A stretch of 64,000 nucleotides of DNA from the IMG/VR virus record IMGVR_UViG_3300042473_001368; one strand, 5' to 3'. Position 1 is the first letter of the stretch; every line of letters begins with the position of its first letter. The notes beneath the pieces were generated by a model. That model searched no databases, had not been told where the DNA came from, and saw nothing but the letters and a program-made list of their open reading frames with translations. The stretch comes from a virus. The position numbers and the translations under genes are program-made. This document shows, piece by piece, positions 5,778 to 56,001 of this stretch.

Positions 5778-6647
5778 ATGGTGAATGTGTTGATCCTAGG
5801 AAATGGCTATGTTGGCAATGAACTTAATAGATTGTTAAATAGATGTAATGTACACTTTAAATCTTTAAAAGATCTTAATTATCACGATCAAGGAACTCTA
5901 CGGAGATACATAGGTAATAACAATATATCCTATGTTATTAACTGTGCTGGTTTTACTGGGCGTCCTAATGTTGATGAATGCGAAGAAAAAAGAGAATTGT
6001 GTACTAAGCTTAATGTAACTGTACCTCTGCAGATCGCAGAATCCTGCAAAGCACTATATGTAAATTATATCCACATCTCATCAGGTTGCATTTATGGCGG
6101 TTATGAAAAAAATTATACAGAAGAAGATACTCCCAATTTTGGTTTCTACGATAGTCATTCTTCGTTTTATAGTAAAACGAAACACCTTTACGAAATATTG
6201 AGTAATGTAGGTCTTACAATAAGAGTAAGAATGCCATTCACGCCATATGCTAGTAATCGAAACTATCTCAACAAACTAATCGCTTATGATACACTTATTG
6301 ATTGCGTAAACTCTAAGACATATTTGCCAGATTTGTGTAATTTTATTCAGTATATTATTGATAATAATATCTACACCAATAATATCGGTGCGGTAAACTT
6401 TGTAAATCCTTCGCCTCTTTGTACTAAGCAAGTAGTTGAGCTAATGGAAGAGTTTAATTTAGTGGATTCATCAACTAAACAGTTCGTGTTAACTGTAGAA
6501 TCTCTCAATGTAAAAGCAAACAGATCAAATTGCGTGCTTGAAAATAAGAAACTTGCTGAATTATATCCAGATTTCTCTATACGTACAGAACGCGAAGCAA
6601 TAAATCATGCTTTGTCTGAAATGAAGGAACTATCAAACACAAAATAA
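5778..6647 (+). CDS. RmlD-like NDP-sugar reductase, NRS/ER (3,5-epimerase/4-reductase)-like
   Basis: ILGNGYVG Rossmann motif, INCAGFTGRPNVDECE, SSGCIY, SFYSKTK, RVRMP. Confidence 0.75.
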   Translation: MVNVLILGNGYVGNELNRLLNRCNVHFKSLKDLNYHDQGTLRRYIGNNNISYVINCAGFTGRPNVDECEEKRELCTKLNVTVPLQIAESCKALYVNYIHISSGCIYGGYEKNYTEEDTPNFGFYDSHSSFYSKTKHLYEILSNVGLTIRVRMPFTPYASNRNYLNKLIAYDTLIDCVNSKTYLPDLCNFIQYIIDNNIYTNNIGAVNFVNPSPLCTKQVVELMEEFNLVDSSTKQFVLTVESLNVKANRSNCVLENKKLAELYPDFSIRTEREAINHALSEMKELSNTK

Positions 6648-13043: not shown

Positions 13044-13118
13044 GGACCGTTCGTCCAACGGATAGGACTAAGGCCTTCTAAGCCTCCAATCTAGGTTCGA
13101 ATCCTAGACGGTCTACCA
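13044..13118 (+). tRNA. tRNA-Arg(TCT)
   Basis: Cloverleaf, loop CTTCTAA, TTCGAA T-loop, CCA. Confidence 0.92.
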
Positions 13119-13120
13119 AT

Positions 13121-13192
13121 GCTGCTATCGTCTATCGGTTAGGACAAATGGTTTTCAACCATTAGAGCGGGGTTCAACTCCCCGTGGCAGCT
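13121..13192 (+). tRNA. tRNA-Glu(TTC)
   Basis: Cloverleaf, loop TTTTCAA, CCA not encoded. Confidence 0.9.
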
Positions 13193-13234
13193 CTCTTTTT
13201 TCAGGTTAAGACATGAACTAGTATAAATACTAGT

Positions 13235-13837
13235 ATGTATTATACGGTTTATAAGATAACAAACTTAATTAACGGTAAAATATATGTTGGTGTTCATAGA
13301 ACATCCAACTTGAATGATTCGTATATGGGATCTGGTATGCTTATTAAGCAAGCGATTACCAAACACGGAGTTGAAAACTTTGAGCGTGAATACTTAGCGG
13401 TCTTCGATAACCCTGAAGATATGTATGACATGGAGTCGAAAATAGTAAATGAAGAATTTATTAACTCTCCATCTTCTTACAACCTTGCTACAGGCGGCTA
13501 CGGAGGCTGTCCTATATCTGGATCAAAAGGAGGCAAAAATTGTGCTGCAAAGTATAAGACGGACCCTGCTCTTGCAGAGGAACGATATTTTAGAAATAAG
13601 CTTCGTTTTGAAGAGTTAAAAAAGCAGGGAAAATGTTTAGGTGGTCCAAAATTTAAAGGGATGAAACACACCGAAGAGACAAAAGCAAAGATCGGGGCTA
13701 GTATTTCTAAAAAATGTCGTGGAGAAAACAACTCTCAGTTCGGGACAATGTGGATAACAGATAAGGTTACAAATAAAAAGATTTCAAAATTCGAACCTAT
13801 CCCAGAAGGCTGGGAAAAAGGTCGTATAATAAAGTAA
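13235..13837 (+). mobile_element. free-standing GIY-YIG homing endonuclease (segB-like position in the tRNA array)
   Basis: VYKITNLINGKIYVG, Y.GSG, F.RE, NUMOD3-like KHTEETKAKIG; TATAAATA promoter. Confidence 0.88.
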
Positions 13838-13854
13838 AAGTATGTTCTTAATAT

Positions 13855-13931
13855 CCTATTGTAGCTCAGTTGGTCAGAGCACTCGGTTGATAACCGATAG
13901 GTCGCAGGTTCAAATCCTGCCAGTAGGACCA
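13855..13931 (+). tRNA. tRNA-Ile(GAT)
   Basis: Cloverleaf, loop TTGATAA, CCA. Confidence 0.92.
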
Positions 13932-13943
13932 AATTTTTCAAAG

Positions 13944-14032
13944 GTACGTGAGGCTACTGTTGGTTGTGTGGCGGCAGACTGTAACCCTGCTCATCAGAAA
14001 CATCGTTGGTTCGATTCCAACCGCGTACACCA
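13944..14032 (+). tRNA. tRNA-Tyr(GTA)
   Basis: Loop CTGTAAC, long variable arm, CCA. Confidence 0.85.
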
Positions 14033-14040
14033 TTTTTATT

Positions 14041-14115
14041 CCGAGGTTAGCATATGTAGTAATGTCCTGCCTTGTGACGGCAGCGAACATGGTGCAAGTC
14101 CATGACCGCGGACCA
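14041..14115 (+). tRNA. tRNA-His(GTG) copy 1
   Basis: ctgcc-TTGTGAC-ggcag, CCA; no G-1, A73. Confidence 0.8.
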
Positions 14116-14120
14116 TTTTT

Positions 14121-14214
14121 GAGCAGCGAGAACTCGGACTAAGTAAAAGGAGGTTCAACTCCTCCATTCTCTGGCTAGTCACTATCAGGATGACAACCTG
14201 ACTGCTCAAATCCA
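14121..14214 (+). ncRNA. structured RNA with an internal T-arm mimic
   Basis: gagcag/ctgctc end pairing, ggagg-TTCAACT-cctcc arm, extra hairpins, ends ATCCA. Confidence 0.45.
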
Positions 14215-14228
14215 CTTTTTTTTAAAAA

Positions 14229-14303
14229 GCACCGTTAGTGTAATGGATAACACGCAAGATTACGACTCTTGTAATAAAGGTTCGAGTCCTTTATGGTGCA
14301 CCA
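14229..14303 (+). tRNA. tRNA-Arg(ACG)
   Basis: caaga-TTACGAC-tcttg, CCA. Confidence 0.92.
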
Positions 14304-14312
14304 ATTTAATAT

Positions 14313-14387
14313 CGGTATGAAGCTTTAATGGTGAAGCGGTTGTCTGAAGAACAACATAAGACGATTCAAGCGCGTCCATGCCGGCCA
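14313..14387 (+). tRNA. tRNA-Phe(GAA), divergent
   Basis: gttgt-CTGAAGA-acaac; imperfect T stem, G73, CCA. Confidence 0.75.
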
Positions 14388-14396
14388 ATTTTCAAT

Positions 14397-14470
14397 CGCG
14401 GGGTAGAGTAGAGGTAACTCAACGGTCTCATAAGCCGTGTACGTGGGTTCGAATCCCACCCCTGCAACCA
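14397..14470 (+). tRNA. tRNA-Met(CAT), initiator-like
   Basis: Loop CTCATAA, C1xA72 mismatch, CCA. Confidence 0.85.
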
Positions 14471-14477
14471 ATTTTAT

Positions 14478-14552
14478 GGAGCATTAGTATATCGGTTAGT
14501 ACGAAGGATTGTCGATCCTTTGGGACGGGTTCGACTCCCGTATGCTCCGCCA
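14478..14552 (+). tRNA. tRNA-Asp(GTC)
   Basis: aagga-TTGTCGA-tcctt, G73, CCA. Confidence 0.92.
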
Positions 14553-14564
14553 AATAACATTTAA

Positions 14565-14640
14565 CGGGCCTGAAGTGTAACCTGGTTGCACGCTTCGTTT
14601 GGGGCGAAGAAGAGGCGTTCGAATCGCACAGGCCCGACCA
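14565..14640 (+). tRNA. tRNA-Pro(TGG)
   Basis: cttcg-TTTGGGG-cgaag, C1-G72, CCA. Confidence 0.88.
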
Positions 14641-14653
14641 ATTTTCAAAACAT

Positions 14654-14727
14654 GCGTTGATCGTCTAATGGTAAGACCTTGGATTCCAAACCCAAAGATG
14701 TGAGTTCGATTCTTACTCAACGTGCCA
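14654..14727 (+). tRNA. tRNA-Trp(CCA)
   Basis: Loop TTCCAAA, G73, CCA. Confidence 0.8.
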
Positions 14728-14729
14728 AA

Positions 14730-14805
14730 CGAGGCGAAGCTTTGATGGCTGAAGCAATCGGTTCTTACCCGATAGAAGCCGGCTCGAGTCCGGACGCCTT
14801 GACCA
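14730..14805 (+). tRNA. tRNA-Lys(CTT)
   Basis: atcgg-TTCTTAC-ccgat, CCA. Confidence 0.82.
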
Positions 14806-14821
14806 ATTTTCAATAAACAAC

Positions 14822-14897
14822 GGGTCTATGATGAAACTGGTTATCATATCTGACTTTTAATCAGACTTTCCGAGTTCGAATCTCGGTGGACCTACCA
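14822..14897 (+). tRNA. tRNA-Lys(TTT)
   Basis: tctga-CTTTTAA-tcaga, CCA. Confidence 0.92.
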
Positions 14898-14905
14898 ATT
14901 TCAAT

Positions 14906-14980
14906 AGGACTTTCGTATAACGGTTATTACTCTCGGCTTTGACCCGATAGATAGATGTTCAATTCATCTAGGTCCTACCA
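14906..14980 (+). tRNA. tRNA-Gln(TTG)
   Basis: Loop CTTTGAC, CCA. Confidence 0.88.
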
Positions 14981-15102
14981 ATTTGCGTCATTGACAGAGC
15001 GAGCTATTCACTCGTGATCATCATTTGAGGCTGGGAAAAGTTGCTGAGACGACGGAGAAGGAATTCTTTAGTTGCAGAACTTAGTACCTAAACATTTTTA
15101 AT

Positions 15103-15193
15103 TCCCAGCGACCCGAGCAGGCGAACGGGCGTGGCTGTTAACCACTGCACCATGAATAATGGAGGCTAGGATCGTTACCTAGGCTGGGAGCCA
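15103..15193 (+). tRNA. tRNA-Asn(GTT) with long variable arm
   Basis: Loop CTGTTAA, ccat/atgg variable hairpin, atypical T-loop ATCGTTA, G73, CCA. Confidence 0.78.
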
Positions 15194-15202
15194 TTTTACA
15201 AA

Positions 15203-15282
15203 GGAGTCGGACTGTTGTCAGCATCCAAATCTGTGAAAAGAGGAGGTTAGGTAATAAGTGGGACGAAACCCACACGGCGCCA
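15203..15282 (+). ncRNA. degenerate tRNA-like RNA ending in CCA
   Basis: ggagtcg/cggcgcc end pairing, gtggg-acgaaa-cccac arm, no valid anticodon stem. Confidence 0.35.
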
Positions 15283-15294
15283 TTTTTTCAATCT

Positions 15295-15376
15295 TTGCAT
15301 AGCGTGTATTGGTTCTGGTAGAGCGCGCATAACTCTGAGCATGTCAGAGAGAATCTACAAAGTATACGCTATGCAA
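15295..15376 (+). ncRNA. long-stem structured RNA
   Basis: 15-bp terminal stem ttgcatagcgtgtat/gtatacgctatgcaa enclosing a ctctga/tcagag hairpin. Confidence 0.5.
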
Positions 15377-15383
15377 TTCTAAA

Positions 15384-15464
15384 TGTCCGCCGGCTGAGAC
15401 TACGCTGATGCACAGTTTGAGTTTAATAGCTCTTAACGATAACGCCGATAATTAGTGGACGCCA
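15384..15464 (+). ncRNA. CCA-terminated RNA with an acceptor-like stem
   Basis: gtccgc/gtggac followed by GCCA; no D, T or anticodon arms. Confidence 0.4.
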
Positions 15465-15512
15465 AATTTCATAGTTGAAGTTCAAAGGAACTAGATTATA
15501 ATAATAATGTAA

Positions 15513-15636
15513 GCAATAGTAGCGAATGGTACAGCAGCGTGTCAGTAGTCAAGATCTCATGGCGGAAACAGGCGGAATACGACAGTACGAGAAACTGGAG
15601 CGTGTTTTTATGGAGGTTCAACTCCTCTCTATTGTT
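15513..15636 (+). ncRNA. tRNA-scaffold RNA with an expanded central domain
   Basis: gcaatag/ctattgt acceptor, TAGC D-arm start, ggagg-TTCAACT-cctct T-arm, ~50 extra nt; own GAAC-N5-TATAAT promoter at 15488-15502. Confidence 0.55.
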
Positions 15637-15750
15637 TAATGCAATCGGCCTCGTGAACAGTGGTGATGCTCTCAGCTTGGATTAAGTTCCTGTCTTCGGA
15701 TTGCTGTGGTCGTATACCTGCGCCTAAAGCTGTTCAAACAATTTTAAAAT

Positions 15751-15843
15751 GCTCCTGTAGGTTAATGGTAAACCACCGGCCTTATACACCGTTTAGCGCT
15801 AGATGTGCGCGAAATCCGGGTTCGAATCCCGGCGGGAGTACCA
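15751..15843 (+). tRNA. tRNA with TAT anticodon (nominal Ile-UAU) and long variable arm
   Basis: Loop CTTATAC, canonical T arm, ~23-nt variable region, A73, CCA. Confidence 0.75.
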
Positions 15844-15853
15844 AATTTTCAAT

Positions 15854-15929
15854 ACGCTTGTAGCTCAGTGGTTAGAGCAAGCCTCTCATAAAGGTTAGGT
15901 CATGGGTTCAAGCCCCATCGGGCGTACCA
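15854..15929 (+). tRNA. tRNA(CAT), elongator Met or Ile2
   Basis: Loop CTCATAA, CCA. Confidence 0.88.
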
Positions 15930-15942
15930 ATTTCTTGAAACA

Positions 15943-16070
15943 TTAACACGCCACACTCTGATCAAGCGACGTGGTAATTATAGATAGACATACAATGCAG
16001 AAGGTTCGATTCCTTGACTCTGGTGAGGTCTGTGTAGTATGGAATGGATCGTGAAATCCTATAGTGTTAA
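15943..16070 (+). ncRNA. structured RNA with an internal T-arm mimic
   Basis: ttaacac/gtgttaa end pairing, aagg-TTCGATT-cctt arm, further hairpins. Confidence 0.4.
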
Positions 16071-16089
16071 TGTATAAATAATTTTTTAT

Positions 16090-16163
16090 GGGGCTATGAT
16101 GTAACGGTAACATACAAGATTTGCAATTTTGTTCTGAGAGTTCGATTCTCTCTAGCTCCACCA
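16090..16163 (+). tRNA. tRNA-Ala(TGC)
   Basis: Loop TTTGCAA, G3.U70, A73, CCA. Confidence 0.92.
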
Positions 16164-16173
16164 AATTTCAATC

Positions 16174-16248
16174 CCCGCTGTAGCTTATACGGTAAAGCCT
16201 ACGCTTGTGACGCGTACTAACTCGGTTCGATCCCGAGCAGCTGGACCA
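16174..16248 (+). tRNA. tRNA-His(GTG) copy 2
   Basis: tacgc-TTGTGAC-gcgta, CCA; no G-1, A73. Confidence 0.82.
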
Positions 16249-16251
16249 AAC

Positions 16252-16325
16252 GCGCTAATAATTTAATGGTAAAATGTCTGTCTTCCAAGCAGAATTCCTG
16301 AGTTCGATTCTCAGTTAGCGTACCA
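16252..16325 (+). tRNA. tRNA-Gly(TCC)
   Basis: tctgt-CTTCCAA-gcaga, A73, CCA. Confidence 0.9.
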
Positions 16326-16330
16326 ATTTA

Positions 16331-16591
16331 ACAACTCTGTAATTCCGTAACATAGCATAGATGATAATGCGCCCGAAAGGGAGAAGGTGCTTAGACCACA
16401 TGAGGAAAAAAGAATTCAGAATTTCGGTGATCTGAATTAAAAGAAAACACCGTACACTTTTAATGCTGAAGTAGCCAAGCGTAATTGTGAGGGGTTCTAT
16501 TTTGCGTCCTATGCGTTTTCTCACCGTTTTAGCGACGATGCAAGTCAAGCCCAATGAGCGGGAAATAACGGATCAGGTTTGAGGTCATCCA
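16331..16591 (+). ncRNA. candidate ~260-nt structured RNA
   Basis: No credible ORF between tRNAs; several hairpins (ccc-gaaa-ggg, aattcag/ctgaatt); ends GTCATCCA. Confidence 0.4.
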
Positions 16592-16607
16592 GTAAAAACC
16601 TTATAAT

Positions 16608-16682
16608 GGCCGCAAAACATAGATGGCGATGTGCTGGTTTTGTACTCCAGATAGGAGGGTTCAAGTCCTTCTGCGGCCTCCA
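16608..16682 (+). tRNA. tRNA-Thr(TGT) copy 1
   Basis: Loop TTTGTAC, CCA. Confidence 0.85.
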
Positions 16683-16691
16683 TATTTTTTT

Positions 16692-16851
16692 GACACAGAC
16701 GGTCTAGCTGTTGTAATTTACGAGACCATAAGAGAGGGTGATTGCGAGTGCGAATGCGTAGTAAGTCTTTTGACCGAAACAAAACAATATCTCGACAAGA
16801 CCGGATACTTGAACAAATTTCTGCCTCTCAAACTTCAGCGTGTGTCATCCA
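16692..16851 (+). ncRNA. candidate ~160-nt multibranch RNA
   Basis: gacaca/tgtgtc closing stem, ggtct/agacc and gagagg/cctctc helices; ends GTCATCCA. Confidence 0.42.
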
Positions 16852-17062
16852 ATTTGTATGAACAGCCGCTTTTCGTGTCTAGGGAAAAGCTCCACAATAT
16901 CAAGGTTATGATATGGCGCTGGTGAAATTCCAGAACGGATTCAAATTTACCTAAACGGGCTCATGAAACATAGGGACGGGCTCTTCCAATAGCGTGATGG
17001 CTATAGTCTTCGGACGAAGAGTATGTATATCTTGCAGAAGTGTTTCACTACAATTTTTTAAT

Positions 17063-17136
17063 GCCTTGTTAGTTCAATGGTAGAACGTCTGTTTTGTAAT
17101 CAGAAGGCGAGAGTTCGATTCTCTCACTCGGCTCCA
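17063..17136 (+). tRNA. tRNA-Thr(TGT) copy 2
   Basis: Loop TTTGTAA, two acceptor mismatches, CCA. Confidence 0.8.
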
Positions 17137-17145
17137 ATTTTCTTA

Positions 17146-17241
17146 CAGTATATAGTGTAGTGATAGCACAACAAATGCGAACTGTGAAAACAGATGTAGC
17201 TAATCAAAATGGTTGCGAGGGTTTGATTCCCTCTGTACTGA
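17146..17241 (+). ncRNA. tRNA-scaffold RNA lacking a normal anticodon arm
   Basis: cagtata/tgtactg acceptor, D arm, gaggg/ccctc T arm; centre holds a ctgt-GAAA-acag hairpin. Confidence 0.55.
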
Positions 17242-17257
17242 CAAATTTTTAAACAAA

Positions 17258-17341
17258 GCGCAGGTGGTGGAATGGTATACACAGCAGTCTTAGAAGCTGC
17301 CGCCGTAAGGCTTGTGGGTTCGAGTCCCACCCTGCGCACCA
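17258..17341 (+). tRNA. tRNA-Leu(TAG)
   Basis: gcagt-CTTAGAA-gctgc, long variable arm, CCA. Confidence 0.93.
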
Positions 17342-17342
17342 T

Positions 17343-18767
17343 TTATCGACTGACCTCTTCCCAGTCCATTGATCCGTAAATGTCATCGCCATCTTTACTC
17401 GCTGCTACAGCTAGAGTTAATTCAAAGGATGTATTTGTAAAGCTATTTCTCTCAAGTTGGAACTTGAACAAAGCTTCTTTAAGAATATCAATAGTAGGAC
17501 TTCCTTGAGCATTGGAAGCAAGATATCCAGAAGCCAATACTCTACCGCCGGACAGACTAGTTCCATCTAGCTTGTATTCTACAGCGGAATTAGCGCTTCC
17601 AGCATCGGTCCATGTACCACCACTAGTTGTCCCTGAAGCAACTGCTCGCCAATTGTAAACTCCTGTACCTAATCCCATTATAGATAATGCAGTTAGAATA
17701 ACAATAGCATCTTGTCTTGCTGATTTTAAACGTATTGAAACTACAGGGTAAAAGGTTCCTTTTACTGTAAGATCTTTAGGAGCAGTTATTTCTGTGCCTA
17801 CTGCTTGTTGCAAGCCTCTTAGCTCATAGCCACCTTCAGATATAACTGTGCTACAAACTTGTTTTAATTTGCTCGGACCTGAAGTTGCAGCTTTATTTTC
17901 AATTTCATATCTGAGCGGTAGTGATCCTGTTGTAATGTATGTTGAATCAATTAGATTAGCGTGATGGAAGTAATGGCAAGGTACAAACTGACCATTGATA
18001 ACAAATCCTGTTCTCACAGTGCCTAATCCGAGCCATTCGATATCCGCGAATAAAATTTGAGCCTTTGTAATATCAAGGGTAAGTCCAGATGGTCCTGATC
18101 CATCTAAGCGATCTACATTCCATTGCGACTGTGGGATACGGTTAGATGAAAGCGAGCCAGAGGTAATGCTGCGTTCAACCATGTAAAGAGTGCTATCGTC
18201 TAACTCTAAGTAGATACCATTATCAACGCCAAAATAACCAACACGTTGTCTAAGATTTGTCTTAGCTTGGTTGAAGGTGAATGTATTTAACAGCTGTAAG
18301 CTCTTACCAGGTTGATATGCAAATACTTTAGTAGTTTCGCGATAAACTTTAGAACCGCTGAGAGCATCAACTTTTAGTTCGACGAGACCTTGAGTTTGAA
18401 TAAATTGCGCAGAAGCAGATGTTGATGTAGATCCTCCTGTTAATGTTGCCCAAAGGTTGTTATCTGCATATCTATGAGACGAGTCAAAAAGAGTCAATGG
18501 ACTTGATGTTCGTGTTCTTCCGAATGCGTCGCTTCCCATGTTTAAGTTGCCTGTATAGTTGCTTGTTGTATCATCAACACTCTTAACTAATACAGCATAC
18601 TTAGGATAGACCTCAACAGAACTTGTTGGAGCAACTCCGGTAGCGTTAGGTGAGTTGTATCGTGTAACAGATACAGCAGGGTATGTTGTATGATTTTTAA
18701 GTTCAACAAACTTACCGTATTCTGCGGTTTGATAATTTGCTACAACAACGGTATTATATTCACTCAT
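17343..18767 (-). CDS. putative virion-associated beta-rich protein
   Basis: ~474 aa, DAFGR.R.S.P.TLFDS motif of large T4-like phages; ATAAATA late promoter upstream on the minus strand. Confidence 0.7.
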   Translation of the reverse strand: MSEYNTVVVANYQTAEYGKFVELKNHTTYPAVSVTRYNSPNATGVAPTSSVEVYPKYAVLVKSVDDTTSNYTGNLNMGSDAFGRTRTSSPLTLFDSSHRYADNNLWATLTGGSTSTSASAQFIQTQGLVELKVDALSGSKVYRETTKVFAYQPGKSLQLLNTFTFNQAKTNLRQRVGYFGVDNGIYLELDDSTLYMVERSITSGSLSSNRIPQSQWNVDRLDGSGPSGLTLDITKAQILFADIEWLGLGTVRTGFVINGQFVPCHYFHHANLIDSTYITTGSLPLRYEIENKAATSGPSKLKQVCSTVISEGGYELRGLQQAVGTEITAPKDLTVKGTFYPVVSIRLKSARQDAIVILTALSIMGLGTGVYNWRAVASGTTSGGTWTDAGSANSAVEYKLDGTSLSGGRVLASGYLASNAQGSPTIDILKEALFKFQLERNSFTNTSFELTLAVAASKDGDDIYGSMDWEEVSR

Positions 18768-18824
18768 CAAAAGTATTTATCATTTTGAGTGGATTATTAT
18801 TAATTTGTTGTTATAATAAGTTGT

Positions 18825-18953
18825 ATGTCGGATAGAACAACAACCAAAACAAGAAAAGCTACAGTAAAACGCGGCAATGTTACTGTTCGTAAGACTGTAA
18901 CAGTAACAAAGACTGTAAAGGCTCCAAAAGAGAAACGGAGACGTAAGAAATAA
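18825..18953 (+). CDS. 42-aa highly basic peptide
   Basis: MSDRTTTKTRKATVKRGNVTVRKTVTVTKTVKAPKEKRRRKK; TATAAT just upstream. Confidence 0.5.
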   Translation: MSDRTTTKTRKATVKRGNVTVRKTVTVTKTVKAPKEKRRRKK

Positions 18954-18962
18954 TTTTTATAT

Positions 18963-19054
18963 GGGTGTGTGGTCGAGTCTGGTTTATGGCGCCGCACTTG
19001 AAATGCGGAGGTGGTGAAAGCTGCCCGTGGGTTCAAATCCTACCGCACCCGCCA
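18963..19054 (+). tRNA. tRNA-Ser(TGA)
   Basis: ccgca-CTTGAAA-tgcgg, long variable arm, G73, CCA. Confidence 0.93.
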
Positions 19055-19151
19055 ATTTAATAAATTGCATGATGAGTCGCGCTCATCTGATCTGGAATAC
19101 GCAGGAGGACGTCCAGTAAGAATAATATATAAACCCTGCACAATTTTTAAC

Positions 19152-19233
19152 GGCTCCGTGGTGGAACGTATACACAGCAAACTTAAAATTTGCCGCCTTA
19201 GGGATTGCGATGTCGAAGTCGCCGGAGCCACCA
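19152..19233 (+). tRNA. tRNA-Leu(TAA)
   Basis: gcaaa-CTTAAAA-tttgc, atypical T loop, CCA. Confidence 0.85.
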
Positions 19234-19243
19234 TTTTAACATT

Positions 19244-19726
19244 ATGCGTAAATTAACATTTAGCGATTGCGAATCGCATGTAGACAAGATTTGTAAGTCG
19301 ATTGTAAAATCGCACTGGCAGCCCGACTATATTGTAGGCCTCAGTAGAGGTGGATTAGTTCCAGGAGTAATGATTAGTCATTGGCTCAATGTACCATTTA
19401 AGCCTCTTGAGGTCTCTCTCAGAGATGGTGGGTATCGTAAGAGTTCAAAGTTTCTTTCAAAAGAAGCGCAATACGGTAGAAACATTCTCATTGTCGATGA
19501 TATTAATGATTCAGGTAAAACATTTAACTGGATTATGAGTGACTGGGAGACTACAATCAGCCAAGGAGGGCATTCGCTCGAAGATGCATGGAACAACAAT
19601 GTAAGATTTGCTGTTCTCGTTAACAAGATCGAGAGTGGCTGCGATGTTAGTATTGATTACTTTGGCGCAGATAACTCATGCGACGTCTCTCCGAAAGAAT
19701 GGTATTCCTTTCCTTGGGAACTTTAA
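19244..19726 (+). CDS. type I phosphoribosyltransferase (purine PRT-like)
   Basis: IVGLSRGGLVP and ILIVDDINDSGKT PRPP-binding motif. Confidence 0.85.
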   Translation: MRKLTFSDCESHVDKICKSIVKSHWQPDYIVGLSRGGLVPGVMISHWLNVPFKPLEVSLRDGGYRKSSKFLSKEAQYGRNILIVDDINDSGKTFNWIMSDWETTISQGGHSLEDAWNNNVRFAVLVNKIESGCDVSIDYFGADNSCDVSPKEWYSFPWEL

Positions 19727-19741
19727 TATAATATCTATAAC

Positions 19742-19816
19742 GCGCGATTAGCTCAGCGGTAGAGCAGATCCTTTACACGGATAAGGTCGGCGGTTCAATC
19801 CCGTCATCGCGTACCA
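19742..19816 (+). tRNA. tRNA-Val(TAC)
   Basis: Loop TTTACAC, CCA. Confidence 0.92.
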
Positions 19817-19835
19817 CTTTTTAATAAATAACATT

Positions 19836-20198
19836 ATGCAATTTACAGCTTTAGTTGAGAAGGTCATAGACGGTGTGACGGAAATGTTTACTCTCTTTAT
19901 AACCAAGAGAGCCGCAGGCGCAAAAAAGATCGAGGATGCTGCACGCAAGAAAGGCATGTACGCAATTCTTACAGCGTATCATTTTGCAGGTAAGGTCAAA
20001 CCTTATGCTGACGCATTAAAATGGGCTAAGAAAGAAGCTAAAGAGGATCACTTCAAAGAGCAGTATAAGGAATTTTACTCCAAGCTGAAGAACATCGATT
20101 CTCTCTCTCAAAAAGAATTTCAAATGATTACAGGATCTCTTGAGGCGTACGGCGAAGTTTATATTCAGTCAAAGACGCCAAAAGATTATTCAAAATAA
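19836..20198 (+). CDS. hypothetical late protein
   Basis: 120-aa ORF after ATAAATA. Confidence 0.65.
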   Translation: MQFTALVEKVIDGVTEMFTLFITKRAAGAKKIEDAARKKGMYAILTAYHFAGKVKPYADALKWAKKEAKEDHFKEQYKEFYSKLKNIDSLSQKEFQMITGSLEAYGEVYIQSKTPKDYSK

Positions 20199-20205
20199 TA
20201 ACAAC

Positions 20206-20279
20206 GAGGCGGTGGGAGAATGGCCATCCAGCGGACTGCAACTCCGTGTATATCAGTTCGAGTCTGATCCGCCTCTCCA
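20206..20279 (+). tRNA. tRNA-Cys(GCA)
   Basis: gcgga-CTGCAAC-tccgt, U73, CCA. Confidence 0.92.
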
Positions 20280-20292
20280 ATTTATAACGAAC

Positions 20293-20366
20293 ACGGGTAT
20301 AATATAATGGTAGTATGCAACGTTGCCAACGTTGATGTTCCGGATCAAAACCGGGTACCCGTACCA
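20293..20366 (+). tRNA. tRNA-Gly(GCC)
   Basis: caacg-TTGCCAA-cgttg, T-loop ATCAAAA, A73, CCA. Confidence 0.85.
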
Positions 20367-20372
20367 CTTTTT

Positions 20373-20449
20373 GCCTCGATATCCCAATTGGTAGAGGAGC
20401 ATGTTTAAGGGACATGATGTTGAGGGTTCGACTCCCTCTCGAGGCACCA
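20373..20449 (+). tRNA. tRNA with AAG anticodon (nominal Leu), short variable loop
   Basis: Perfect catgt-TTAAGGG-acatg arm, 5-nt variable loop, A73, CCA. Confidence 0.75.
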
Positions 20450-20453
20450 ATAT

Positions 20454-20528
20454 ACCACTGTAGTTCAGAGGCAGAACGCGTCGCTCATAACGACGAGGTC
20501 GGGATTTCGAAATTCCCTGGTGGTACCA
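20454..20528 (+). tRNA. tRNA(CAT), elongator Met or Ile2
   Basis: cgtcg-CTCATAA-cgacg, CCA. Confidence 0.88.
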
Positions 20529-20536
20529 AATTTTAA

Positions 20537-20629
20537 GGAACGTTGACAGAGTCCGGTATTGTGCTGTCCTGCTAAGACATGGCCAACCCTATAAAGGTTG
20601 CATTGGTTCAAATCCAATACGTTCCTCCA
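20537..20629 (+). tRNA. tRNA-Ser(GCT)
   Basis: Loop CTGCTAA, long variable arm, U73, CCA. Confidence 0.85.
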
Positions 20630-21764: not shown

Positions 21765-21793
21765 GAGGAGACCGACTTTTAGTCGGTCTCCTC
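21765..21793 (+). terminator. hairpin terminator
   Basis: 13-bp perfect stem gaggagaccgact/agtcggtctcctc. Confidence 0.75.
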
Positions 21794-21821
21794 TTAATGA
21801 ACTAGTGTATAATAAGAGAGT

Positions 21822-22070
21822 ATGAAGGTAAGAGGAACAATCCAAGCAGATGTAGAGATTACAGACTTTGAAGCAGCGTGTATTGCAATTAAGGTAATTC
21901 GGATCACTAGAATGTGGCCAGGGCGATATCGTATTGATGAAAACGGCAATGTATGCGAAGAGGTGGTGAATGTAACATCTCATGAATGGTCTGAGACGAA
22001 GATTATCCGTCCTGCGACAGATGAGGATAGATTTACCTGCAAACTTATCCAAGATATTTTAAAGGGCTGA
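21822..22070 (+). CDS. hypothetical protein
   Basis: 82 aa after an early promoter; stop overlaps the RNA 5' end. Confidence 0.6.
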   Translation: MKVRGTIQADVEITDFEAACIAIKVIRITRMWPGRYRIDENGNVCEEVVNVTSHEWSETKIIRPATDEDRFTCKLIQDILKG

Positions 22071-22130
22071 ATATGGTTTCGACGGGAGAGTTTACGCTCT
22101 CCCGGACGGGGTTCGAGTCCCCACGGTCCA
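22064..22130 (+). ncRNA. minimal tmRNA-like RNA (tRNA-like domain only, no tag ORF)
   Basis: GGGCTGAATATGGTTTCGAC 5' signature, gggagag/ctctccc P2 closed by a 6-nt loop, GGAC-GGGG-TTCGAGT-CCCC, G3.U70 and A73. Confidence 0.75.
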
Positions 22131-22149
22131 CTTTTTAACAAAACAAATT

Positions 22150-22488
22150 ATGAGAGAATTATTAAAAATTTTATTAGTCGGGAGCTTAACCTCAGCAATG
22201 TATTACTACGCTGAACAACGTGATGTTCTATTTGCGCAGATTTTAGCATGGTGCTGTATGGCGTTTTCAATGTATATCGCACTTGCTTTGGTTGCGAGCT
22301 ATAAGTTCTATACTCAAACGATGAAAATCTTAGCGGTAAGTCCTTTGTGGCATCGCATCCCAAACTATGGATTTATTACGTTTAACATCCATGCACTATA
22401 CGGATCTGCTTTAGGTTACATCTACCTTATTCTGATTATCTTTTTCGAAGCACTATATTTAATTGCAAAGTTATCAACAGATGAATAA
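22150..22488 (+). CDS. membrane protein
   Basis: Several hydrophobic helices. Confidence 0.6.
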   Translation: MRELLKILLVGSLTSAMYYYAEQRDVLFAQILAWCCMAFSMYIALALVASYKFYTQTMKILAVSPLWHRIPNYGFITFNIHALYGSALGYIYLILIIFFEALYLIAKLSTDE

Positions 22489-26222: not shown

Positions 26223-27167
26223 ATGAAAAAACAATTACATCTAAAGTGGGCCGTTAGTACAACGCAAATTTTTATCGCTAACCTCGACCCTGAATTCACA
26301 CCGGTGACTGCAGATGAAAAGTTTCATCTTGCGATCAAGCAAAGCACCTTTCTAGGCGGTGAACCATATTTGAGATTTGCTGACTACTTATCTGATGCAA
26401 CTCAAGATCCTAATGCTCAGTTGTTTATTACGCAAAGAGCAGATAGTGTTGAGGACTTTTTCAGAGTTGTAATTGCGGCTGATGCTGCACGTAGAGCCGG
26501 CTTCAAAAACATTAGTCTTGTCTTACCTTATTTCCCTGGTGCTCGTCAAGATCGTGTTTGTAATGAAGGCGAAAGCTTGACTGTTAAGGTCTATGCTGAT
26601 ATGATTAATCGTTGCAATTTTGATGCTGTGTATATCCTAACTCCTCACAGCGATGTTACGCCTGCGCTTATTGATAATGTTGAGCTCATTGACGATCTTG
26701 TCTATGCCGAAAAGGCTGTAGCTGACATCTATCAAAAAACTGGAGTGAATAGCTTTATGATTATCTGTCCAGACGCTGGAGCAGGCAAACGCATTGAAAA
26801 GATTGTCAAACATCTTAAAGCAACGTTTGCGACATTTCATAATTTTGACGTAGTCAATTGCGAGAAAGTTCGTGATCTTGCTACAGGTGAATTGCAAAGC
26901 TTTAAGGTTCATGCTGATCGTAGCCTTAATGGCTATAACTGCATTATCTTTGATGACATTGTGAGCATGGGCGGCACCTTTATTGGACTCAACGCTAAAC
27001 TTGAAGAAGCTGGCGCAGAAAAAGTCTATTTGAGTGTCTCGCACGCAGATTGTCTCAAAGGCGTAGTCAAGATGTGCTCAACCTTCGATGGCGTTTACAT
27101 CACGAATAGCCGCAAAATTGATCGAGACGGTCTTAAGAATCTCACGATTTGGCCAATTGAACTCTAA
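26223..27167 (+). CDS. prs: ribose-phosphate pyrophosphokinase-like (probable NARP1 Adps)
   Basis: F.GGEP, LPYFPGARQDR, PHSDV, PDAGA, K.RD..TG.L, DDI...GGTF, VSH. Confidence 0.88.
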   Translation: MKKQLHLKWAVSTTQIFIANLDPEFTPVTADEKFHLAIKQSTFLGGEPYLRFADYLSDATQDPNAQLFITQRADSVEDFFRVVIAADAARRAGFKNISLVLPYFPGARQDRVCNEGESLTVKVYADMINRCNFDAVYILTPHSDVTPALIDNVELIDDLVYAEKAVADIYQKTGVNSFMIICPDAGAGKRIEKIVKHLKATFATFHNFDVVNCEKVRDLATGELQSFKVHADRSLNGYNCIIFDDIVSMGGTFIGLNAKLEEAGAEKVYLSVSHADCLKGVVKMCSTFDGVYITNSRKIDRDGLKNLTIWPIEL

Positions 27168-27897: not shown

Positions 27898-28731
27898 ATG
27901 AATAATACACTAGCACCGCTACTCGTCGACGGCTATAAAGTCGACCATCGCCGTCAATATCCAAGCAACAGCAAGCTTGTCTTTAGTAACCTTACTGCGC
28001 GAGGCTCTCGTGTAGCAGGTCAAAACAAAGTAGTTCTCTTTGGCTTGCAATATTTCATCAAGCGCTATCTCATTGAAGATTGGAATCGCAACTTCTTCGA
28101 GCGACCATTGGATGAGGTAACTGCAAAATACGCACGCCGTTTGCTCGCATATCTTGGACCTAACCAGATCGGCGATCAACACATTCGTGATTTACACGCT
28201 CTTGGCCACTTGCCTCTCGAAATCTGGAGCTTGCCTGAAGGCAGTCTCGTTGATCTTCGTGTGCCAATGTTTGTTGTATGGAATACAGATTCTCGTTTCT
28301 TCTGGCTGACTAATGCTATTGAAACTCTCTTGAGCACTACGATCTGGGGACCTTGCACGAGCGCAACAACTGCATTGATGTATCGTCGAATCTTAAATCG
28401 TTGGGCTCAAAAAACTGCTCCTGAAGCGATTGACTTTGTGCCATGGCAAGGCCACGACTTCTCCTTCCGCGGCCACTTTGGTCTCGAGGCTGCATCGATG
28501 AGCGGAGCTGCTCACTTACTGAGCTTCACTGGTACTGATACATTGCCTGCTATTGATTTCCTCGAGGAATATTATGGCGCTGATGTTGAGAAAGAACTCG
28601 TCGGTGGTTCGGTTGCTGCAACAGAACACAGCGTGATGTGCATGGGTATCGGCGAGTGTGAGGTTTATTTAGATTCTCTCTCTGAAGAGAGTCTTATTGA
28701 ATTTGCTGAGAAGAACGGTTATCGTTTTTAA
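27898..28731 (+). CDS. nadV: nicotinamide phosphoribosyltransferase-like (NARP1 Namat), N-terminal piece
   Basis: D.YKVDH..QYP, FGLQYF, LPEG, ETLLS, HDFSFRG, FTGTDT, SV.ATEHSVMC. Confidence 0.88.
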   Translation: MNNTLAPLLVDGYKVDHRRQYPSNSKLVFSNLTARGSRVAGQNKVVLFGLQYFIKRYLIEDWNRNFFERPLDEVTAKYARRLLAYLGPNQIGDQHIRDLHALGHLPLEIWSLPEGSLVDLRVPMFVVWNTDSRFFWLTNAIETLLSTTIWGPCTSATTALMYRRILNRWAQKTAPEAIDFVPWQGHDFSFRGHFGLEAASMSGAAHLLSFTGTDTLPAIDFLEEYYGADVEKELVGGSVAATEHSVMCMGIGECEVYLDSLSEESLIEFAEKNGYRF

Positions 28732-29503
28732 ATTGATTACACTCATCTTTTGACCAGTTATGCGATCGTCCCATATGTTTATTGAAATTTCCTCCATCTA
28801 AATTTTGTAATGAGCATATGGGACACGAAAGCTTAGGCCTAGCCTGAGCCCGCGCTTTAGCCCACTCTTTATTTTGACCTAGCAGCTTTGCTGCAGCGCT
28901 CATTTTCTGCTTTGTCGATTCACTATGAGATTTGCCGAGAAATGTTGGCTCTCTTGATTCTACCAGCAATTTCCCTCTATCTCCTCGCCAGAAATCTTCG
29001 TTAATTTTGTCCATCTTTAACCTAAACTCAGGAGTAGCCCATAACTCTTTCATTTTTTCTCTCCTATGTTGTCTGTATTCTTCACTTGCTTGTCGCGAAG
29101 AAACCGCTTTTGAAATCTTATTTACATGATCCTCAGAAAGCACCCTACCAATATTGCATATTATAAACGGTTTATTATTATTGTCGTGAGTATTCAAAAA
29201 ATCCTTTCTGGTACGAGCATTAACCTTTTTTAAGAATTTTGATTCAAATATACAAGCTTCAGTGTGCGTCTCAAACTGTTTGTGAATTACAATAGAAATG
29301 GGGGTAATGCCTTTATCTAAAAGATTTTTTACAGATAACGAACTACTATAATATTTAATAAACAGATCTTCAGAAGGTTTTAATTTTAACCTAATATTCG
29401 CACACCTAACACCATAGTAATATTTTAACTCACCGTCAACTTCAAACTTAAGCATATAAGTGTAACATTTAACATCATCATTTGTTTTATTAAGAACTAA
29501 CAT
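28694..29503 (-). mobile_element. free-standing GIY-YIG-like homing endonuclease inside the Nampt-like gene
   Basis: YTYML...YYYGVR...YYSSS, NUMOD3-like GKSHSESTKQKMS, C-terminal CPIC; TATAAATA upstream on the minus strand. Confidence 0.8.
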
Positions 29504-29538
29504 ATAATATTATTTATACTCCACAAGTCCAAAGTATC

Positions 29539-30375
29539 ATGAAAATAACACAAGAAAATAAAAAAGAATTCGCTGAATATTTGACATTTAAGCGATTAAT
29601 TACAGAAACATACCCAACTGGTATCGTAAGTATCGTAAGCGACACGTTTTCATTCTGGAATGTAGTCAATCCTGATGGAGGCATTTGCGCACAGCTTAAA
29701 GATTTGATTATGGCTCGTGATGGTAAGGTTGTCATTCGTCCTGACAGTGGTGATCCAGTGAAGATTGTTACTGGCTATACTGATGAAGAATGGACGGCTC
29801 TTGAATATGCTCGTAGTTATAGTGGAGGTTTGACGATGCCATCGGAACTTGAGCGTAAGGGCATGATTGTGTGCCTTTGGGAAATCTTCGGCGGTACCGA
29901 AACCAGCACTGGATATAAGCAGCTCGACTCTCACATTGGAGCAATCTATGGTGATAGCATTACTCTTGAGCGTGCAGAGGAAATCTGCCAACGCCTCGCT
30001 GATAAAGGCTTTGCATCGACTAACATTGTCTTTGGTATTGGCAGCTTTACCTATCAAGGCGCTGTAACTCCTGATGCAATTGTAACTCGCGACACCTATG
30101 GCTTTGCTGTAAAGAGCACCTATGGTGAAGTTGAGATCAACGGAGATATTGTTGGTAAAGAGATCTTCAAAGATCCTAAGACTGACAATGGTCTGAAGAA
30201 GAGTGCAAAAGGTCTGACCGCTGTCTATGAAACAGCAGATGGCTTTGAGCTCAAAGATCAAGCAACCTGGGATGAAGTTCGCAATTGCGCATTCTATCCT
30301 GTCTTCGCAAATGGCAATCAGTGTGTTGTTGAAACTCTAAGCGAGATTCGTGCTCGCCTTGCTAAAAACTTCTAA
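29539..30375 (+). CDS. nadV: Nampt-like (Namat) C-terminal piece
   Basis: P.GIVSIVSDT, VVIRPDSGDP, IYGDSIT, FGIGSFTYQ, TRDT.GFAVK, KDPKTD.G.KKSAKG. Confidence 0.88.
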   Translation: MKITQENKKEFAEYLTFKRLITETYPTGIVSIVSDTFSFWNVVNPDGGICAQLKDLIMARDGKVVIRPDSGDPVKIVTGYTDEEWTALEYARSYSGGLTMPSELERKGMIVCLWEIFGGTETSTGYKQLDSHIGAIYGDSITLERAEEICQRLADKGFASTNIVFGIGSFTYQGAVTPDAIVTRDTYGFAVKSTYGEVEINGDIVGKEIFKDPKTDNGLKKSAKGLTAVYETADGFELKDQATWDEVRNCAFYPVFANGNQCVVETLSEIRARLAKNF

Positions 30376-55899: not shown

Positions 55900-56001
55900 A
55901 AGTGTGTGGTGTAATGGTAGCACAACCCAAGCAAAGGGCTTCTTGTCCGATAGGATAGGTGGAGTTTCATCGAGGCGCAGGTTCGATTCCTGCCACACTT
56001 A
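55900..56001 (+). ncRNA. tRNA-scaffold RNA with a branched centre
   Basis: aagtgtg/cacactt acceptor, TGGTGTAATGGTAGCAC D arm, gcagg-TTCGATT-cctgc T arm; ~50-nt branched centre. Confidence 0.65.

Follow-up and report, generated by a model that had tools for sequence, protein, structure and literature searches.

The 67 nucleotides (nt) at 22064-22130 of the window (the whole 64-kb stretch of viral DNA that was analyzed) are very probably a genuine tmRNA-derived gene that was reduced to its tRNA-like domain (TLD) through an internal deletion in a full-length phage tmRNA gene. An earlier note on this DNA had described the element, which we call the mini-tmRNA, as a stand-alone tmRNA TLD without a tag or pseudoknots, and this description was borne out by the predicted fold, by a covariance model (R1), and by an alignment (A2) with the tmRNA genes of sister phages. 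The 67 nt quoted in that note were located exactly at 22064-22130 on the + strand, and both ends resembled those of E. coli ssrA (NC_000913.3), with GGG(G)CUGA..GG.UUCGACGGGA on the 5' side and GGACG.GGGUUC.A.UCCC...UCCA on the 3' side. The features of the locus are listed in Table 1.

Table 1. Features of the mini-tmRNA locus in the window
Feature	Position	Strand	Basis or remark
82-aa gene of unknown function, upstream of the mini-tmRNA	21822..22070	+	TGA stop codon at 22068-22070, within the 5'-terminal 7 nt of the mini-tmRNA
Mini-tmRNA gene, tRNA-like domain only, 67 nt	22064..22130	+	R1 match, MFE fold, alignment to both ends of the sister full-length tmRNAs
Acceptor stem, 5' strand GGGCUG, pairing with 22124-22129	22064..22069	+	MFE fold, R1
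Stemless D-loop analogue, 13 nt unpaired; GG and UUUCGA correspond to the tmRNA elbow region contacted by SmpB	22070..22082	+	
Helix 2a, 9 bp, UUAC loop	22083..22104	+	MFE fold, alignment A2
GGAC linker 5' of the T arm, conserved	22104..22107	+	Alignment A2
T arm, 4-bp stem GGGG/CCCC, loop UUCGAGU	22108..22122	+	Local match to Rfam tmRNA (positions 348-362), R1
Acceptor stem, 3' strand CGGUCC, and discriminator A22130	22124..22130	+	Sequence, MFE fold
C and T5 run 3' of the mini-tmRNA; could be a weak termination or 3'-processing signal	22131..22136	+	

The MFE fold of 22064-22130 corresponded to the proposed TLD, with -30.6 kcal/mol and a modest z score of -2.4 relative to shuffled sequences. 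The stemless D loop, the G3.U70 pair, and A73 that the earlier note had pointed out were all found in this fold. Specifically, G22066.U22127 was the third acceptor pair and the equivalent of G3.U70, unpaired A22130 was the equivalent of A73, and A22070 lay opposite A22123 in an A.A mismatch that formed the seventh acceptor layer. These features of a tmRNA TLD and the T arm were combined with an acceptor stem of 6 bp plus the A.A mismatch and a T stem of 4 bp. The mRNA-like domain, resume codon, and tag frame were absent from the mini-tmRNA, as were pseudoknots PK1 to PK4; the strands of helix 2a were joined by just a 4-nt UUAC loop, or by 6 nt (UUUACG) when the weak U.G closing pair was counted as open.

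The sequence GGTTTCGAC of the D-loop region showed no variation across the six mini and full-length genes in alignment A2. The GGAC motif was also invariant in A2; in the alignment of the viral mini family (A1), GGA alone was invariant, and the fourth base varied. TTCGAC was invariant across the viral mini family, although the search pattern used to collect that family itself required TTCGAC.

Database models and the wider family of mini-tmRNAs

Routine annotation tools passed over the element. ARAGORN identified 28 tRNAs in the 64-kb window and called no tRNA or tmRNA at 22064-22130, and Rfam gave no match there at the gathering threshold. The earlier note had looked to the Rfam tmRNA and mt-tmRNA models for confirmation, which they did not provide: the tmRNA model (RF00023) yielded a local match to the T arm of just 6.8 bits, compared to a gathering score of 47, and mt-tmRNA (RF02544) was not among the Rfam matches to the window at E values up to 10. 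The mascRNA (16 bits) and rli60 (18 bits) matches that appeared at E values up to 10 were attributed to chance. A tRNA-Ala gene was also considered and rejected, because neither ARAGORN nor Rfam had a tRNA match at the locus, there was no D stem, and the middle hairpin did not have a 7-nt anticodon loop.

The search for the same architecture in other phages that the earlier note had proposed was productive. We scanned IMG/VR for two conserved motifs 8 to 38 nt apart and obtained 22 loci. Among these were 13 unique sequences of 62 to 82 nt, which had a 7-bp acceptor with G3.U70, an A73, and, in most cases, an encoded CCA. The common structure of this 13-member family was supported by covariation: 93% of the cells were paired, eight pairs had changed on both sides, and 0 of 500 shuffles were as good. 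The covariance model R1 was built on these 13 mini-tmRNAs, with the window left out. When applied to the whole 64-kb window, the best R1 match was exactly 22064-22130 (47.0 bits, E value of 3.8e-9), and the second-best match was the phage's own tRNA-Ala (26.7 bits). R1 also recovered the TLD-only tmRNA of mycobacteriophage DS6A at 28478-28557 with 52.9 bits. All 13 family members in A1 had the canonical stack of 7 acceptor plus 5 T-stem bp, whereas the window copy did not.

Contigs of viral and metagenomic origin commonly carry mini forms. In addition to the 13 unique sequences in IMG/VR, at least 51 were present in metagenome matches; the mini form accounted for 51 of 119 among the matches listed in the metagenome scan. 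ARAGORN called none of the 13 IMG/VR mini-tmRNAs (0/13). Tag-less stubs of phages are frequent in viral and metagenomic DNA, yet they are missed by ARAGORN and Rfam.

These results and published work did not agree with the statement of the earlier note that tagless tmRNAs are known mainly from protist mitochondria, because a phage precedent, the "TLD only" tmRNA of DS6A, has been published (JN698994.1; PMC4131195; PMC11915505). DS6A is the only phage for which such an RNA has been published. The DS6A RNA and the window mini-tmRNA are both phage-borne, and they have in common a length of about 70 to 80 nt, G3.U70, A73, a stemless D-loop, a helix 2a that closes on a short loop, a T arm, and no tag frame. 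Both were matched by R1, both were unannotated, and both were missed by routine tools. We found in the window copy each feature that marks the DS6A type, namely, a full TLD that closes at helix 2a, the absence of a coding part, and a location in a phage. The two RNAs also differed: the DS6A RNA is GC rich, with 7 bp in the acceptor and 5 bp in the T stem, and belongs to a temperate actinophage, whereas the window mini-tmRNA, with an acceptor of 6 bp plus A.A and a T stem of 4 bp, lacks CCA, belongs to a large, tRNA-rich freshwater phage, and can be traced to full-length sisters. Thus, a DS6A-type phage RNA was already known, and what is new here is the origin, the occurrence of a full-length and a mini gene at a single locus, and an acceptor/T stack with an atypical 11 layers.

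tmRNAs without a coding sequence (CDS) are also found in jakobid and oomycete mitochondria (RF02544) and in two plastids, as genes of about 65 bp in Mallomonadaceae (PMC11915505). Like the window copy, these organellar RNAs are reduced to the tRNA-like domain and are of similar size; unlike it, they are of independent origin and co-occur with a nucleus-encoded SmpB (PMC11915505). Compared to bacterial SsrA (RF00023), the window mini-tmRNA has similar ends but no mRNA-like domain or pseudoknots. Full-length tmRNAs are found in about 2% of phage genomes (PMC9004378), including the mycobacteriophage Bxz1 group and Bacillus phage G (PMC4131195; PMC9004378).

Origin and structure of the window copy

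The gene upstream of the locus, which encodes 346 aa, had 87 homologues in metagenomes, and we fetched contigs for a range of these. In sister phage L023, in which the 346-aa gene was 89% identical to that in the window, ARAGORN identified a 328-nt tmRNA with the tag GEQQLALAA directly 3' of the homologue of the 82-aa gene. Sister phages L034 and L026, in which the 346-aa gene was 62% identical, carried tmRNAs of 366 nt and 368 nt, respectively, both with longer tags. Homologous genes of 79 to 85 aa occupied the corresponding position in the sister phages and lay directly 5' of the tmRNA in L023 and L034; the 82-aa protein was 52% identical to its L023 homologue. The three full-length tmRNAs have the locus, the flanking 79- to 85-aa gene, and the 5' and 3' ends in common with the mini-tmRNA, and the same T-rich trailer follows the mini and the full-length genes.

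In alignment A2, the mini genes aligned to the 5'-terminal ~27 nt and the 3'-terminal ~34 nt of the sister tmRNAs, with one internal gap of ~260 to 330 columns. The ~260 to 300 nt that the window gene does not have contain pseudoknot 1, the resume codon, the tag frame, and pseudoknots 2 to 4 in the sisters, and the loop letters of the mini gene are the remnant of sequence that flanks both helix 2a strands in the sister genes. Because a full-length tmRNA occupies the same spot in the sister phages and the mini gene is collinear with it, we interpret the mini form as the product of an internal deletion of ~260 nt. The deletion was very probably recent and single and occurred within a freshwater phage lineage, with both strands of helix 2a kept and now closing on a short loop. 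This natural before-and-after pair at one locus shows how TLD-only phage RNAs are born. The full-length gene and the stub also provide matched constructs for work on whether phages supply, block, or bypass host ribosome rescue and tagging.

Other searches defined the extent of this lineage. Relatives L025 and L027 to L031 had no tmRNA in the 2.5 kb on either side of the 346-aa gene, and no independent mini forms were found in the flanks of more distant relatives. A BLAST search with the locus against 50,697 phage records returned no relative, nor did a tblastn search with a 497-aa open reading frame, and a search of IMG/VR for loci related via the 346-aa gene found none. The 67-nt query itself gave weak 30-nt BLAST matches (E value of about 6) in 215 records, 197 of which were Mycobacterium phages; most of the listed Mycobacterium phage matches were annotated there as tmRNA, and the matched part was the 3' half of the mini-tmRNA. 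DNA of the phage was present in many lake, aquatic, and wastewater metagenome runs.

Additional carriers of the mini form were identified via exact-protein look-ups of two flanking small genes and via a 97% identical relative, L032. Nine further independent assemblies, which came from JGI, ENA, and Logan samples and from different pipelines, all had the mini architecture. With the window included, they represented three haplotypes. These differed in the loop, in the length of the T run 3' of the gene (5 or 6 T), and in the 5' strand of helix 2a, where G had changed to A on two independent occasions. Each G-to-A change produced an A.C mismatch in helix 2a of the respective haplotype, within the otherwise invariant GACGGG motif. 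The acceptor, D-loop, and T arm (45 nt) were unchanged in all three haplotypes, and helix 2a was the sole variable part of the RNA. A contig from a freshwater metatranscriptome bridged 22056-22192 with the mini form and had two extra letters (TT) at the T run. Metatranscriptome contigs covered parts of the window, and we did not count the contig over the mini-tmRNA as proof of expression, because such contigs do not give strand, ends, or level, and it could represent read-through RNA or contaminating DNA.

The acceptor/T stack of the window copy departed from that of the sisters, which have a 7-bp acceptor (GGGCCUG/CAGGUCC) and a 5-bp T stem. In the mini-tmRNA, one C was lost from the 5' strand of the acceptor, and the 3' strand reads ACGGUCC. 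A T-stem pair was lost on both strands, which left 4 bp. As a consequence, the coaxial stack of the mini-tmRNA has 11 layers, including one A.A and one U.G pair, compared to the canonical 12. CCA is not encoded after A22130 (A-C-TTTTT), although it is encoded in 25 of the 28 tRNA genes in the window. The missing CCA is not a new defect, since it is also absent from the sister tmRNAs of L026 and L034 (it is present in that of L023). The short stack, the A.A and U.G pairs, and the missing CCA look like decay, and they may impair use by RNase P, EF-Tu, or the ribosome.

Other changes pointed in a different direction. Helix 2a was perfect over 7 to 9 bp in the window, compared to a mismatch in L023, and included one A-U to G-C double change. 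The A67-to-C change restored G-C pairing after the deletion in the 5' strand of the acceptor. These paired changes, together with the loss of the T-stem pair on both strands, suggest that selection once acted to maintain pairing, be it before or after the deletion. Purifying selection could not be demonstrated in the mini lineage, because the lineage is young: relative to L032, 3 of the 67 RNA positions were changed and divergence in the flanks was 2 to 7%, a comparison that has no power for selection.

Candidate functions

By analogy with published work, the most likely function of the mini-tmRNA is that of a decoy that binds SmpB and damps host trans-translation, a reading that we put forward tentatively, at somewhat less than even chances. 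The RNA would be transcribed together with the upstream 82-aa gene. Host RNase P would cut at G22064, the 3' end would be trimmed at A22130, and a host enzyme would add CCA. The intact elbow (GG...UUCGAC, GGAC, and T loop) would then bind host SmpB. Having no message for the ribosome, the mini RNA would mainly compete, tying up SmpB and possibly AlaRS and EF-Tu, and the predicted outcome is that host trans-translation and SsrA tagging are damped during infection. Any SmpB partner would have to be that of the host, since a tblastn search with E. coli SmpB found no homologue in the 64-kb window.

The TLD is the crucial SmpB-binding region of tmRNA, which SmpB both protects and makes easier to charge (PMC3022190). 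According to Mao et al. (2009), as cited in PMC4131195 and PMC11915505, tmRNA is strongly inhibited by a molecule that consists of the TLD alone, whether or not this molecule can be charged, and the cause suggested in the account of that work in PMC4131195 is perhaps SmpB titration. The DS6A TLD-only RNA is thought to act likewise as a competitor (PMC11915505). A decoy role for the window mini-tmRNA would agree with the tmRNA inhibition by a similar molecule described by Mao et al., as related in PMC4131195. Hints that the structure was maintained also favor it: helix 2a is perfect in the window, the changes relative to the sisters are paired, and the acceptor, D-loop, and T arm do not vary among the haplotypes. 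The A.C mismatches in helix 2a of two haplotypes and the decay-like acceptor/T stack argue against it. In addition, the sisters keep a full-length tmRNA, and a switch from supplying to blocking is less parsimonious than a loss of function. If the mini-tmRNA is a decoy, the 11-layer stack bears on how much tRNA geometry a decoy needs.

The decoy reading can be extended to a selected switch, in which one deletion bounded by helix 2a converted a tmRNA into an SmpB-trapping decoy, phage TLD-only RNAs arose repeatedly in this way, and a regulatory loop operates via a non-stop upstream mRNA. We consider it unlikely that all of these elements hold together. Were they to do so, the fate of the upstream mRNA would depend on the pathway that the RNA blocks, which would amount to a built-in regulatory loop.

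A serious rival to the decoy is a young pseudogene. Here, a chance deletion would have destroyed the phage tmRNA and left a functionless 67-nt stub that has had too little time to decay. We regard this as a real possibility, ranking somewhat below the decoy. The mini lineage is shallow, with 96 to 98% nucleotide identity to the most distant member found, and the divergence of the RNA is the same as background. Helix 2a, which is gaining A.C mismatches in two haplotypes, and the 4-bp T stem, the acceptor A.A mismatch, and the missing CCA are what a decaying stub would display. Moreover, the tmRNA gene appears to be dispensable in this clade, because relatives L025 and L027 to L031 do not have it within 2.5 kb of the 346-aa gene. 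What a pseudogene does not readily explain is that the deletion spared precisely both strands of helix 2a and reproduced an architecture that many unrelated phages conserve with covariation and that DS6A also has, that the changes relative to the sister genes are pairwise compensatory, and that the 45 nt of the acceptor, D-loop, and T arm are unchanged in every haplotype.

A productive, tag-less form of ribosome rescue is improbable. In this scenario, the alanylated RNA would enter stalled ribosomes with SmpB and EF-Tu, accept the nascent chain, and release it without a tag, either by drop-off and Pth or by an ArfB-type route, and phage proteins would be spared SsrA-directed proteolysis. The retention of G3.U70 and A73 fits such a role, as does the model in PMC3022190, in which the Ala-TLD and SmpB mimic aminoacyl-tRNA and are accommodated, and CDS-less tmRNAs persist alongside SmpB in jakobid mitochondria and some plastids (PMC11915505). 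However, with an 11-layer stack, an A.A mismatch, and no CCA, an efficient geometry for RNase P, EF-Tu, and peptidyl transfer is doubtful, there is no known release mechanism for a peptidyl-TLD, and the similar molecule described in PMC4131195 is reported there to inhibit rather than rescue. Owing to the short stack and the missing CCA, a productive Ala-adding role is less likely than a decoy.

It is still less probable, and in our view very unlikely, that the element is a structured end of the mRNA of the 82-aa gene, such as a terminator, processing site, or stabilizer, for which the tmRNA ancestry would be irrelevant. The GC-rich structure is followed by a C and a run of 5 or 6 T that begins 2 nt after the acceptor stem, and the mini-tmRNA overlaps the upstream stop codon. 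Nevertheless, a terminator scan made no call at the mini-tmRNA, the RNA-library contig continues past the T run and into the gene that follows, and a plain hairpin would suffice for such a role, which leaves the retention of the D-loop, T-loop, and G.U pair unexplained. Finally, a full-length ssrA that collapsed during assembly, against which the earlier note had cautioned, is next to impossible, because the same junction was present in nine further assemblies from different samples and pipelines, in three natural haplotypes, and the RNA-library contig likewise bridged it.

Genomic context and host

In sister phages L034 and L023, too, the upstream small gene ends at or near the start of the tmRNA. 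In L034 (3837-3846), the TAA of the small gene is 8 to 10 nt into the full-length tmRNA, and in L023, the TAA immediately precedes G1. An smpB-ssrA overlap in Carsonella (PMC4131195) is similar to the overlap of the small-gene stop and the tmRNA observed here. If RNase P cleaved the co-transcript, the mRNA of the small gene would be turned into a non-stop message. The 82-aa gene (21822-22063) showed 87% nucleotide identity to L032, compared to 96 to 98% in the surroundings, and the differences were evenly distributed over codon positions (10/11/10). Either diversifying selection is driving fast evolution of this gene or the gene is under weak constraint. PHROGs and Pfam searches assigned no function to the flanking genes.

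The early promoter that the earlier note had placed at 21799 was not recovered: a consensus scan listed no site, and a TATAAT at 21808-21813 was not preceded by a -35 element at the proper spacing. The sigma-70 consensus would not apply if the host is a member of the Bacteroidota. A perfect 12-bp GC-rich hairpin at 21766-21794 (GAGGAGACCGAC / GTCGGTCTCCTC) was located between the 346-aa gene, which it follows directly, and the TATAAT at 21808. This hairpin is probably the terminator of the upstream unit, though just TT follows it.

With respect to the host, a BLAST search with the sister tmRNA against 301 genomes from the phylum of a Chitinophagaceae metagenome-assembled genome (MAG) yielded short matches to the T arm and tag region alone. 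The tags of bacteria in that phylum (GEENYALAA, GENNYALAA, and others) are similar to the GEQQLALAA tag of the sister phage. This similarity is the basis for the weak guess of a Bacteroidota host.

Several other features were noted during the analysis. The window has a dense array of 27 tRNA genes at 13044-20629, nearly all with an encoded CCA, and Rfam found three tRNA-like genes that ARAGORN had missed, at 14313-14384, 17146-17241 (which ends in ACAA), and 55900-56001. A gene similar to ribose-phosphate pyrophosphokinase genes (Pfam Pribosyltran_N; region 26223-27167 / 27898-30375) was ~30% identical to phage Prs genes. In sister phage L026, an intein was present at 5893-6035 in the gene for the large subunit of ribonucleotide reductase (PF14890 between two PF02867 in precomputed Pfam annotations). 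Lastly, many copies of an element of ~65 nt were found in Eremiobacterota MAGs (Cybelea, Tumulicola, and Vulcanimicrobiota; L036, L043, L046, L049 to L051, and many more), sometimes with two on one contig. This element reads GGTATTCGACGGGAGCGGCCGGGACCCCG...GGGTTCGATTCCCGTTGGCGCTA, is often followed by CCA, resembles a tRNA or a TLD, and has no clear 5' acceptor strand.
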